Shown here one piece after another: positions 11,930 through 14,185 of a stretch of DNA of 64,000 nt (its first letter is position 1; each line of letters opens with the position of its first letter). Where the stretch lies: the NCBI GenBank assembly GCA_902790415.1, contig CADARU010000001.1, forward strand, positions 50,071 through 114,070, given 5' to 3'. Under the pieces are notes generated by a model. That model was not told the DNA's origin. It saw nothing but the letters and a program-made list of their open reading frames with translations, and did no database searches. Origin of the DNA: an uncultured Pseudomonadota bacterium. Lineage in GTDB: Bacteria > Pseudomonadota > Alphaproteobacteria > Rs-D84. The translations under genes were made by a program, and so were the position numbers.

Positions 11930-12190
11930 TTATTTTTTTATGTATTCGTTGTTTTTATTAAAGATGTTGTTTTGGGTATTATTAACATCTCTTAATGCAC
12001 ATGCCGCAGAATATTCAACCCTGTCTTGTTCTGGTACATCTTCCCATTGTTTATAAACACGTTTAATGCGTGCACCATTTTGCGCGGTTTCGGTAATTGT
12101 TACCAAGAAATTGTTTTTGTCTTGGTGAATTGCAAATATTTTTTGACCAGATTTAATTAAACCATGTTTAAAATTTGGTTTACTTTTCAT
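11930..12190 (-). CDS. Small protein, member 6 of the tandem paralog family (86 aa)
   Basis: Shares the family pattern (hydrophobic beta-like N-half ...F.I....N.....I... then Y..(D/E)(M/V)P.E.R...) with the five ORFs at 12308-14185: ...KIFAIHQDKNNFLVTITETAQNGARIKRVYKQWEDVPEQDRVEYSA. RBS AAGGATGGAAAATG and a hairpin terminator downstream. Confidence 0.55.
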   Translation of the reverse strand: MKSKPNFKHGLIKSGQKIFAIHQDKNNFLVTITETAQNGARIKRVYKQWEDVPEQDRVEYSAACALRDVNNTQNNIFNKNNEYIKK

Positions 12191-12256
12191 TTTCCATCCT
12201 TTTTTTTAAAGCACCGGATTATAGGCCCACCACAGAAAAAAAAGCAACCAAAAAAT

Positions 12257-12292
12257 CACCCTGGGCAAAATAAAATCTTGCCCAGGGAAAAA
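12257..12292 (-). terminator. Hairpin terminator after paralog 5
   Basis: ccctgggcaa / ttgcccaggg 10-bp stem followed, on the minus strand, by a T-run. Confidence 0.5.
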
Positions 12293-12307
12293 CAAACAAG
12301 TATATCG

Positions 12308-12502
12308 TTACTGTTTTACTCTTTGTGCCACATTGTTCACTGCGCGCGCCAATAACAAATCAGCTTTGTCCATGGCCGATATATCTTTTGGATTGCCATA
12401 GGTTCTTTTAATTGTGCGTCCATCACGCATTTGTTCAAATACGGTCATAGAATACGGATTTGTTGTAACGACAAATGTTTTGTTACGATAAAATACTGTC
12501 AT
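12308..12502 (-). CDS. Small protein, paralog family member 5 (64 aa)
   Basis: MTVFYRNKTFVVTTNPYSMTVFEQMRDGRTIKRTYGNPKDISAMDKADLLLARAVNN. Strong RBS AAAGGAGTAAAAAATG. It resembles member 1 (…FITFYNPYRITYVMKRPGQRVTTFYASLDQMPAAVRNKY…). Confidence 0.55.
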   Translation of the reverse strand: MTVFYRNKTFVVTTNPYSMTVFEQMRDGRTIKRTYGNPKDISAMDKADLLLARAVNNVAQRVKQ

Positions 12503-12513
12503 TTTTTACTCCT

Positions 12514-12966
12514 TTATTTACCTTGTTCAAAACTTTTTAAAACCAGTGTATTTTGTGGCATTCTGGGCACACTCTTCTTGTTAATTTTTATATTCTGGTC
12601 ATCAGCATTGGAATCCAATTTGGTCGCCCCATATACCGCCGCCGCCAACAATGCACATACCACCAAATACCCGCCCCAGGCAATTAACCGACTGCGCAAC
12701 GGGGTGTCATCAGGTTCACAATAAAATACCCGGCTATAAACATCACGAACACGTTCACGCATAGATTCAGATAACCCAACCCTATGTCCATCAACCAGAA
12801 CATCGTATTTTACAACGTTTATACCATTTTCACGAACAACAGAATTTTTTATAATAACACCATCGCAAGAGATATAATTCAACCCCTTGTGAAATTTTTC
12901 ATCTTTATAATTTTTCAATAACTTTTCTAAACGCGCCGCGTCCGAATTACTTTCCTTCATCATCAA
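12514..12966 (-). CDS. Hypothetical single-pass membrane protein (150 aa)
   Basis: One clear TM helix (LIAWGGYLVVCALLAAAVYGA) near the C-terminal third. No recognisable domain. Embedded in the paralog array. Confidence 0.45.
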   Translation of the reverse strand: MMMKESNSDAARLEKLLKNYKDEKFHKGLNYISCDGVIIKNSVVRENGINVVKYDVLVDGHRVGLSESMRERVRDVYSRVFYCEPDDTPLRSRLIAWGGYLVVCALLAAAVYGATKLDSNADDQNIKINKKSVPRMPQNTLVLKSFEQGK

Positions 12967-13051
12967 CCTATCAAAACAAAAAATATCAAGTAGATTTTAG
13001 GAAAAATAGCCCAAAGGGTCAACCAAAAAAATACCCCAAATAGGGCAAATT

Positions 13052-13270
13052 TTAATACGAATGTTTACACACGGTTTTTGTAATCTGTGCGATTCTAAAT
13101 TTCCGCCGCATTTCATCCGGCATAGAACCAACACTTTTGTAATTAACAGATGTGTTTTGACCGGTTTCTGGGGTATACTCAATAACATTCACAGACCGCA
13201 TTGTTCCAAAATCATTATACGCAATGATAAATGTAGTATGCCCATAAAATACAGTTTCATATTTCATCAT
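13052..13270 (-). CDS. Small protein, paralog family member 4 (72 aa)
   Basis: MMKYETVFYGHTTFIIAYNDFGTMRSVNVIEYTPETGQNTSVNYKSVGSMPDEMRRKFRIAQ. It begins 5 nt after member 3 ends, so translational coupling is possible. Confidence 0.55.
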   Translation of the reverse strand: MMKYETVFYGHTTFIIAYNDFGTMRSVNVIEYTPETGQNTSVNYKSVGSMPDEMRRKFRIAQITKTVCKHSY

Positions 13271-13275
13271 AAATT

Positions 13276-13503
13276 TTACTTCTGCAGAGAATTTTTGTTA
13301 TTCCAACGTGCAAGTGCCGCATCGGTAACTTGGGCGAAAAACAATTTGTTTTTATCTTCTTGGGGCATATCATACGTACTTTTGTAACAACCGGCCGGTT
13401 TTCCATCTTTAAGTACTTTTACAAGAGAAACCGAACCATCTGTATAAGTGATGATAAATATGGTATTTCCCGCCCGAACTGTTTCTGTTTTAATCCCAAT
13501 CAT
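13276..13503 (-). CDS. Small protein, paralog family member 3 (75 aa)
   Basis: MIGIKTETVRAGNTIFIITYTDGSVSLVKVLKDGKPAGCYKSTYDMPQEDKNKLFFAQVTDAALARW. RBS AAAAGGAAAATAAAATG. Confidence 0.55.
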   Translation of the reverse strand: MIGIKTETVRAGNTIFIITYTDGSVSLVKVLKDGKPAGCYKSTYDMPQEDKNKLFFAQVTDAALARWNNKNSLQK

Positions 13504-13524
13504 TTTATTTTCCTTTTGGTAACG

Positions 13525-13713
13525 CTAACGCGCGATTTGCCTTGTGGCACGCATCTTTTTTGCAATCAACATTTCATTGTATTCCGCCACTGGCATGTCA
13601 GAATATGTATTATATACCGTTTCCGTTTTTGATTTTATAACCTTGACTGAAAAATTTGCGCCATTGCGAAAAATGATAAAACATTTATCTTTTGTATTTA
13701 TAACTTCGCATCT
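13525..13713 (-). CDS. Small protein, paralog family member 2 (about 63 aa from MRCEV; the track ORF extends to 13773)
   Basis: MRCEVINTKDKCFIIFRNGANFSVKVIKSKTETVYNTYSDMPVAEYNEMLIAKKMRATRQIAR. RBS AAGAAAGGATTTTAAAATG supports the internal start at 13713. Confidence 0.5.
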   Translation of the reverse strand, partial: RCEVINTKDKCFIIFRNGANFSVKVIKSKTETVYNTYSDMPVAEYNEMLIAKKMRATRQIAR

Positions 13714-13963
13714 CATTTTAAAATCCTTTCTTATTAACAAAGTTATCTTATTAAAATTATGGCAAAAAATCAATAAAAAACGCCCGTCAAAATATTTAGC
13801 GTTTAAAAATACGTGATAAAATATTTTTTAATTGTCCAGCATCTTTTTTATAATCTGCACGATTGTTTGGACCAACCGCTTGGTCCAAAATTTGATGTAA
13901 ATCATTCAAAACTTTTTGTATTTTCTTTTCCACATATGCAATTATAGCATAACATTTAGTATT

Positions 13964-13992
13964 TTGCAAAAAAACACCCCGCGATTGCGGGG
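13964..13992 (-). terminator. Hairpin terminator after paralog 1
   Basis: On the minus strand it reads ccccgcaatcgcggggtgttttttt. A near-identical sequence recurs at 19836-19861. Confidence 0.55.
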
Positions 13993-14002
13993 ATATTTTA
14001 TA

Positions 14003-14185
14003 TTACTTGTTATAACCAGCACAACGTTGCATCATCGCATATTTATTACGAACAGCCGCCGGCATTTGATCCAACGATGCATAAAATGTTGTAACCCTTT
14101 GTCCTGGTCTTTTCATAACATACGTAATACGATACGGGTTATAAAAAGTTATAAATTTTTCTGTATTTGTCCTTTTAATTTCCAT
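14003..14185 (-). CDS. Small protein, paralog family member 1 (60 aa)
   Basis: MEIKRTNTEKFITFYNPYRITYVMKRPGQRVTTFYASLDQMPAAVRNKYAMMQRCAGYNK. RBS AAGAGGGAAAAAAATG. First gene downstream of the rRNA operon terminator. Confidence 0.55.
   Translation of the reverse strand: MEIKRTNTEKFITFYNPYRITYVMKRPGQRVTTFYASLDQMPAAVRNKYAMMQRCAGYNK

Follow-up and report, generated by a model that had tools for sequence, protein, structure and literature searches.

An array of six genes for small paralogous proteins beside the rRNA operon of a gut alphaproteobacterium (order Rs-D84) partly resembles a homogeneous polyimmunity locus

Six small minus-strand genes, p1 to p6, lie directly downstream of the rRNA operon in the DNA analysed here, a 64,000-nucleotide stretch (the window) of contig CADARU010000001.1 (positions 50,071 to 114,070 of the forward strand; assembly GCA_902790415.1) from an uncultured alphaproteobacterium of the order Rs-D84. 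The six genes are homologous and represent true paralogues of one family, each of them is a real gene under purifying selection, and no described family contains their products. Since streamlined genomes keep up to six diverged copies under purifying selection, a real, lineage-specific function is implied; all copies are found next to the rRNA operon, in the only island that is visibly variable. As for this function, we tentatively rank first a homogeneous "polyimmunity-like" array of non-enzymatic binding modules, acting as neutralisers or adaptors, while binding of nucleic acids appears nearly as likely. Contigs of relatives are referred to below by L numbers and related proteins by P numbers.

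Homology and Selection

An earlier note on this DNA, made from the sequence alone, had described six mutually related minus-strand open reading frames (ORFs) of 60–86 aa at positions 11930–14185, and the ORF list confirms them at these coordinates. The six paralogues, all on the minus strand within 2.3 kb, are only 14–40% identical in pairs, and pairwise BLASTP is strong for p3 and p4 alone (7e-9), several other pairs being marginal (1e-3 to 0.1) and p6 weak. The relatedness was borne out by a leave-one-subfamily-out analysis, in which profiles of five subfamilies at a time were run against the full set of 809 stop-to-stop ORFs from the window. Each omitted paralogue was recovered (E of 3.3e-7 for p1, 5.6e-9 for p2, 6e-14 for p3, 1.3e-13 for p4, 8.9e-11 for p5 and 5.5e-13 for p6), while the best unrelated ORF never scored better than 0.17. 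These data show that the six genes are homologous. No seventh copy was found within the 64-kb window.

Short stretches of residual DNA similarity among p3, p4 and p5 fit an old tandem duplication as the probable origin of the family expansion. In other species, separate orthologues exist for every one of the six subfamilies: p1 is matched by P0009, P0015, P0035 and P0043, p2 is identical to P0003, and the orthologues of p5 are P0006, P0011, P0013, P0016, P0024, P0026–P0028, P0030 and P0044. The same six genes in the same order are present in the contig of a sister species, L092, and comparison of the window with this contig by the Nei–Gojobori method gave dN/dS values of 0.14, 0.25, 0.30, 0.32, 0.14 and 0.21 for p1 to p6, respectively. 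Values in this range demonstrate purifying selection on each paralogue and argue against hypervariability.

This observation bears on one of the interpretations offered in the earlier note, namely a phase-variable surface family, which may be widened to antigenically variable and to secreted proteins. Such a family would share with the array its tandem arrangement of diverged paralogues, and nothing else speaks for it. The six sequences contain no signal peptide, lipobox or membrane helix, and the proteins are predicted to be cytoplasmic; the regions around the starts are free of homopolymer tracts, simple-sequence tracts and invertible repeats; and the dN/dS of 0.14–0.32, together with the conserved set and order of orthologues in L092, points to stable genes. 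We therefore consider this interpretation contradicted and leave it next to no probability.

Predicted Fold and Known Families

The C-terminal half of the proteins does carry a conserved motif of the Y/P type, as the earlier note claimed, but the formula given there had to be rewritten. The refined motif reads F (strand 2) ... Y-x-[ST]-x-x-[DSQ]-[MVI]-[PS]-x-x-x-[RKY]-x-x-hydrophobic-x-x-A, and its F and Y are the sole invariant residues among the six paralogues and their close orthologues. Across 39 aligned sequences of the family, whose size range is 58–96 aa, one Tyr alone at the end of strand 4 is invariant, while the D-M-P turn capping the helix and the helix Ala are common.

AlphaFold2 modelling of p3 with the family alignment (pLDDT 90.2) placed strands at residues 4–11, 14–21, 24–32 and 35–40 and a helix at residues 48–74, and the same topology of four strands plus a helix was obtained for p6 (pLDDT 77.3). 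The fold is thus predicted with confidence to be a four-stranded antiparallel beta-meander packed on a long C-terminal helix, which is N-capped by the D-M-P turn. The conserved positions (core F, Y and helix cap) look structural, and no catalytic motif is recognisable in the alignments of the six proteins or of the family. By its sequence pattern, strand 2 is hydrophobic on both faces.

Two zinc-ribbon proteins from unidentified metagenomic sources, P0037 and P0050, contain three or four tandem repeats of the type "TVT..GVT.TY.SWEDVP.ELR.K". The part of the family profile that they match comprises strand 4 and the helix cap (E of 1e-6 and 2e-4), and no Pfam family covers the repeat. The matches hint at a possibly wider occurrence of the hairpin-plus-helix-cap unit.

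None of the six proteins matched Pfam, NCBIfam, PHROGs or PADLOC, and the 39 members scanned against Pfam at E <= 10 gave scattered chance matches only. There was no significant match in the sequence-profile search of the PDB, no significant fold match to PDB or viral structures, and no match of the family to the Imm, SUKH or SuFu models of Pfam. Since every named homologue is annotated as a "hypothetical protein" as well, the suggestion of the earlier note that the family is undescribed proved right. Among further analogues considered, AP2, integrase N-terminal domains, Sac7d and CsrA were all absent from the best fold matches.

The earlier note had also seen a faint resemblance of the C-terminal motif to KTSC-domain proteins. 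The Y..VP motif with its following helix is real, but its use for placing the family is unsupported. As a positive control, the KTSC consensus retrieved 179 proteins, all 120 listed ones with PF13619, and the structures 7x8c, 4rgi and 8wiv. When the family was compared by hhalign with a 28-sequence KTSC alignment, a probability of 9% (P 0.0036) was obtained over 30 columns, which covered the Y..VP plus helix segment only; this stretch is the sole profile similarity of the family above noise. Fold searches did not retrieve 7x8c, 4rgi or the C-terminus of 8wiv among the best matches.

True common ancestry, in which the six would be highly diverged KTSC-domain (PF13619) proteins, would explain the similar size, the shared succession of a beta-rich first half, an aromatic-x-x-(V/M)-P stretch and a helix, and the fact that hhalign aligns exactly this last segment. 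However, neither the six nor the 39 members at E <= 10 match PF13619, the hhalign probability is low and limited to a short segment, and the invariant KTSC residues (S-S-N near the N-terminus, G, Y-x-Y, P, and S-x-G after the helix) have no counterparts in the 39-sequence alignment. We find such an ancestry quite improbable.

Distribution

The host lineage is indicated by the valyl-tRNA synthetase (ValRS) of the window (3810–6209), which shares 88% identity with its counterpart in a metagenome-assembled genome (MAG) of Candidatus Enterousia and 76–82% with those in other MAGs of gut Alphaproteobacteria. The uncultured order Rs-D84 from the gut includes Enterousia, whose genomes are mostly below 1 Mb and for which an obligately symbiotic or parasitic life is predicted (PMC12306168).

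Among 5.8 billion clustered proteins, a profile search returned 25 matches, all of them orthologues of p1–p6. Exhaustive HMMER against 1.84 billion representatives gave 33 matches at E <= 1e-3, of which about 25 are small (58–96 aa), and a second iteration gave 39, every named one being a "hypothetical protein [Alphaproteobacteria bacterium]". The family is therefore very rare, about 40–50 clusters in billions of proteins, and is confined to Enterousia-type (order Rs-D84) Alphaproteobacteria MAGs and one phage contig. No relative of p3 was found among GTDB species representatives, probably because the island adjoins the rRNA operon, where MAG contigs break.

The phage-borne member, P0046 (65 aa), aligns over its full length and is present as a single copy on a 67.7-kb IMG/VR viral contig with a G+C of 31% (L101, IMGVR_UViG_3300028832_000138, positions 10001–10198; longer copy L099, positions 8001–8198). 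Its neighbours encode large proteins of unknown function (phrog_9915-like), and in L099 there are also genes for NrdD, a radical-SAM protein and thioredoxin. No gene of the zeta-type, papain-like or membrane-protein (TM150-like) kinds described below was found near P0046 on the viral contig. In GenBank phages and PLSDB plasmids, tblastn found no match for p3, p2 or the phage-borne member, and p3-type patterns found nothing in IMG/VR.

The earlier note had proposed checking whether the array size varies among related genomes, and it does: depending on the species, 1 to 6 copies are present. There are six in the window, L001–L004 and L092, three in L008 and L088, two in L102 and one in L009 and L093. 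In all contigs of the window's own species the six genes are constant, and the neighbouring cargo alone varies.

The Array and Its Island

The genes follow each other on the minus strand in the order p1 (14003–14185; 60 aa, pI 10.1), p2 (13525–13716; 63 aa, pI 9.7), p3 (13276–13503; 75 aa, pI 9.4), p4 (13052–13270; 72 aa, pI 9.2), p5 (12308–12502; 64 aa, pI 10.2) and p6 (11930–12190; 86 aa, pI 9.6), the last with a longer C-terminal tail. For p2 we use the ATG preceded by an AAAGGA Shine–Dalgarno sequence; the mechanical ORF list extends this gene to a TTG at 13773, which gives 82 aa. The earlier note assigned every gene its own ribosome-binding site, and this holds for five of the six, with a clear Shine–Dalgarno sequence 5–8 nt upstream, but not for p4, which has a weak GAAG only and starts 5 nt after the stop of p3.

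Terminator-like hairpins were located by a terminator scan on the minus strand 3' of the 5S rRNA gene (14226–14244) and after p1 (13977–13992), p4 (13032–13047), p5 (12259–12287, with a 13-bp stem) and p6 (11904–11928); p1 starts 41 nt past the first of them. Altogether, ten terminator-like sites occur in 3.1 kb, as compared with 2.7 +/- 1.6 in shuffled sequences. Because hairpins follow p1, p4, p5 and p6, the array is likely split into the transcription units [p1], [remnant ORF], [p2-p3-p4], [TM150-p5] and [p6].

The remnant ORF, x57 (13796–13969, minus strand), has 57 codons and was overlooked in the earlier note. BLASTP relates it to intact genes for a 195–217-aa (about 205-aa) protein in L002, L005, L007 and L088, and DNA alignment reveals an in-frame deletion of about 480 bp flanked by ATTATA/AATATA microhomologies, the ATG start now being GTG. 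The intact parent survives in sister strains and species (L002–L007, L088 and L092). Its residues C60, H103 and D118 are invariant, and a weak, sub-threshold match to PF15644 "Papain fold toxin 1" (E 0.01) leads us to suspect a papain-like fold. We rejected this protein as an obligate partner of the family, since its gene is deleted in a strain that keeps all six genes.

The single membrane protein that the earlier note saw interspersed in the array was located at 12514–12966 (minus strand). This protein, TM150, has homologues in L092 and L088 and consists of a cytoplasmic N-domain and one hydrophobic helix, LIAWGGYLVVCALLAAAVYGA, by which it would pass the membrane once. Its stop lies 11 nt before p5, and in three species the stop of a membrane-protein gene precedes a member of the p family by 8–13 nt. 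In an eight-sequence alignment, TM150 and its relatives form the second lineage-specific paralogous family of the island, with a cytoplasmic N-domain of about 100 aa; genes of this type occur in L092 (4532–5080 and 5912–6367), L102 (10332–10787 and 10802–11377), L008 (4712–5341), L093 (1062–1457) and L088 (1680–2135). A BLASTP E of 0.03 had raised the idea of a p-like domain in the cytoplasmic part of these membrane proteins; it was rejected at an hhalign probability of 0.1%.

Downstream of p6, all on the minus strand, follow genes for a secreted Cys-rich 100-aa protein, s100 (11532–11834), a 204-aa hypothetical protein, c204 (10900–11514), a 541-aa repeat protein (9190–10815) and a zeta-toxin-type P-loop kinase (8486–9172). 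The s100 protein has a signal-peptide-like N-terminus, a pI of 4.7 and no family assignment; with tblastn matches in L008, L009, L088, L093 and L102, it lies between a p member and the zeta-like kinase in five species. The c204 gene is island cargo without a family match, which has a 94% identical copy in L002. The 541-aa protein has internal repeats of about 55 aa (NF.KY.ENFL..G...G.P.ERL...W..LN.ELKSRGVGL) and no match in Pfam, NCBIfam or PADLOC. The earlier note had pointed to it as a possible partner, but it represents strain-variable cargo: being present in the window and L001, it is absent from L002, although this contig belongs to the same species and retains the array, so that an obligate partnership is not supported.

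The kinase matches PF06414 (E 9.4e-9; score 35.4 bits, cutoff 22.3), with nothing above cutoff in NCBIfam; its probable ATG is at 9151 (221 aa). It forms the conserved downstream boundary of the island, being found there in five of the six species with a known downstream flank, and its orthologues in L008, L093 and L102 are 64–66% identical. In L008, a second zeta-type kinase (2864–3415), 54% identical to the conserved one, is encoded 50 nt after the first family member and is followed by a 170-aa protein (3568–4080) with a weak Arr/rifampin-ADP-ribosyltransferase (ART)-like match. No solved relatives of the zeta-type kinase or of the papain-like protein were found in the PDB.

The upstream boundary of the island is the 5S rRNA gene (14283–14397; Rfam RF00001, 78.9 bits), the last gene of a 16S–tRNA(Ile)–23S–5S operon, which is complete in the window on the minus strand (16S rRNA, 17724–19227; tRNA-Ile, 17527–17603; 23S rRNA, 14478–17227). 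The position of the 5S gene relative to the array is the same in L002, L008 and L009, and in all relatives examined the members are either directly downstream of the 5S gene or at the end of a contig, in the place expected for the rRNA operon. A 915,787-bp scaffold, L102, displays the window-like order of pseudouridine synthase, a protein of about 1040 aa, the rRNA operon, the island, the zeta-type kinase, a ComF-like protein and ValRS. The island thus always occupies the same chromosomal slot after the rRNA operon in Candidatus Enterousia and its relatives. Within the slot, L008, L009 and L102 retain the succession "member, Cys-rich protein, kinase"; the window has it too, interrupted before the kinase by c204 and the 541-aa gene, and so does L093, with two extra genes between the member and the Cys-rich protein. 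The G+C of the island is 31–40% against a window average of 42%, and L093 alone has an integrase close to the island.

Other features of the surrounding DNA may be mentioned. The spacer of the rRNA operon (14478–19227) contains tRNA-Ile(GAT) alone, tRNA-Ala being absent, and the 23S match of 2750 nt to a 2925-position model suggests that the 23S rRNA is shortened, a feature shared with other reduced genomes. Several large minus-strand ORFs of 1042, 437, 428, 457 and 463 aa (19884–23012, 25134–29060 and 7002–8393) have no Pfam match at all, and the 1042-aa gene upstream of the rRNA operon keeps its position in L102.

Possible Functions

We place a neutraliser or adaptor role first, as a possible rather than an established function, because of the architecture of the array, its toxin-like neighbours and its close linkage to genes for membrane proteins. 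According to this proposal, the paralogues would be diverged cytoplasmic neutralisers or adaptors, each docking a different partner through the free sheet face and the helix. As partners, one may think of toxin-like enzymes or of membrane proteins, whose genes would lie in the island itself or which competitors would deliver; candidates are the zeta-type kinases, the 205-aa protein with the suspected papain-like fold and the protein with weak likeness to ART.

Several observations weigh against such a role. No toxin-like gene is consistently adjacent to a member, and the secreted protein separates the conserved kinase from the nearest one; adjacency is occasional, p2 following the papain-like gene in sister strains and the second kinase of L008 following a member labelled p0, and the toxin assignments are weak. 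The papain-like and ART-like assignments are below curated thresholds and without sequence relatives in the PDB, and the zeta-type kinase may be an ordinary kinase. The array is broken up by terminator-like hairpins and does not form one polycistron, and within the species the six genes are stable, whereas polyimmunity loci are typically strain-variable. Finally, all six proteins are basic (pI 9.2–10.2), as are 36 of 39 relatives (above 8.8), while the candidate partners are neutral to basic (pI 7.1–9.4), which leaves no charge complementarity.

The same charge supports the second interpretation, according to which the proteins are small basic nucleic-acid binders whose exposed sheet face and Lys/Arg-rich C-terminal helix contact DNA or RNA. 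The paralogues could then be local regulators of island genes or factors associated with RNA, the ribosome or the nucleoid. Since the basic charge is uniform, no toxin is consistently paired with a member and the array is stable within the species, we regard nucleic-acid binding as nearly as likely as the neutraliser or adaptor role, that is, likewise tentative. Among 55 proteins of the window the median pI is 6.8, and 18% are above 9. The proteins are small and lack an enzymatic motif; functionally, they may be compared with Sac7d/Sso7d and AP2-type domains, small basic sheet-plus-helix binders. Their profile similarity to the Y..(V/M)P plus helix segment of KTSC (hhalign P = 0.0036) would also agree with this interpretation, as KTSC forms the C-terminus of the HerA helicase in PDB 8wiv and is suspected to bind RNA. 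A phage homologue exists, and the array adjoins the rRNA operon.

However, this proximity may only reflect an insertion hot spot. The regions upstream of the genes share no operator-like palindromes, and the search for operator-like repeats there revealed only residual coding-sequence similarity between the paralogues. Moreover, one to six diverged copies, depending on the species, would be unusual for a housekeeping binder in a genome below 1 Mb, and the double-faced hydrophobicity of strand 2 suggests a protein–protein or dimer interface.

The net positive charge at the C-termini of all six proteins permits a further interpretation, in which they are mini-effectors or adaptors of type IV secretion, their cationic tails serving as a VirD4 signal for delivery into the partner cell of a presumed obligate symbiont or parasite. 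The window contains a gene for a VirD4/TraG-type coupling protein (37134–39398, minus strand; Pfam PF02534 E 1.7e-44, also recognised by NCBIfam), and the expansion of lineage-specific paralogues in a variable island is typical of effector repertoires. A partner-dependent lifestyle has also been proposed for Rs-D84 (PMC12306168). Nevertheless, we hold secretion to be improbable: a distance of 23 kb separates the coupling protein from the array, none of the genes next to that protein was recognised by Pfam as a VirB gene (an adjacent 414-aa protein has no significant match), a basic C-terminus is not a specific feature, the members lack an effector-like domain and are very small, and the phage copy is hard to fit.

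Returning to the neutraliser role, one may sketch a more elaborate form of it, which we put forward as a speculation of low probability. Cytoplasmic neutralisers of a new fold, the membrane proteins, the Cys-rich protein and the zeta-type kinase might together constitute an unrecognised "conflict module" that adjoins the rRNA operon in a gut bacterium living as an obligate symbiont or parasite. The paralogue array would shield the cell from a varying repertoire of toxins (kinases, deamidases or ARTs) that pass between Enterousia strains or between these and their partner cells, possibly via the VirD4-type system, and the capture of one copy by a phage would represent a counter-measure. The probability left over by all these interpretations belongs to functions outside them.

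If the proteins are neutralisers, they would represent a new immunity or antitoxin family and would indicate inter-strain or symbiont–host conflict in Rs-D84; if they bind nucleic acids, they would provide a new small sheet-plus-helix binding module. In either case, the family alignment could seed a new family entry, and the fold is compact and well predicted, while practical use is limited by the narrow taxonomic range and the uncultured host.

Comparison with Known Systems

The systems closest to the array are, besides polyimmunity loci, KTSC proteins, polo-box and cryptic polo-box domains (ZYG-1 4nkb, PLK1 and PLK4) and the toxin–antitoxin pairs epsilon/zeta and PezA/PezT. With KTSC (PF13619; 7x8c, 4rgi and the HerA C-terminus in 8wiv) the family shares a length of about 60–70 residues, the succession of strands, an aromatic residue, (V/M)-P and a helix, a poorly understood function and the occurrence as stand-alone small proteins. 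Besides the lack of a PF13619 match and of the invariant residues, the two differ in distribution: KTSC is widespread across bacteria, whereas our family is restricted to one alphaproteobacterial order and one phage.

The likeness to epsilon/zeta and PezA/PezT consists in the zeta-type kinase (PF06414) as a constant neighbour of the island and in the second kinase of L008, which lies 50 nt downstream of a member in the order "antitoxin, then toxin". However, the epsilon and PezA antitoxins are helical, while four strands and a helix are predicted here; six antitoxin-like genes correspond to one kinase, which is possibly no toxin. The layout of a pair is also not seen in the window, where p6 is followed by a terminator, s100, c204 and the 541-aa gene before the kinase, nor in L008, L009, L093 and L102, where the secreted protein intervenes and only the extra kinase of L008 adjoins a member.

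Homogeneous polyimmunity loci are tandem sets of distantly related paralogues of one immunity family, for example, SUKH, Imm11 or Imm33 (Zhang et al. 2012, PMC3482391). They form one locus per genome, contain variable numbers of genes and have recombinases nearby as well as viral copies (PMC3482391). The array differs from them in that it matches no Imm, SUKH or SuFu model and its members are strongly basic, that it is stable within the species and conserved in order across species, that it is interrupted by terminators and membrane-protein genes, and that no delivered polymorphic toxin of the Rhs, CdiA, T6SS or T7SS type is seen. At the same time, it likewise consists of tandem, same-strand, distantly related paralogues at one locus within the sequence examined; the copy number differs between related genomes and the neighbouring cargo is strain-variable; toxin-like genes are near, and in one relative (L093) an integrase; one member is phage-borne, and the conserved residues appear structural. 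Comparing the two, we suggest that the family is new and that, among the known kinds of loci, its array most closely resembles a homogeneous polyimmunity locus.

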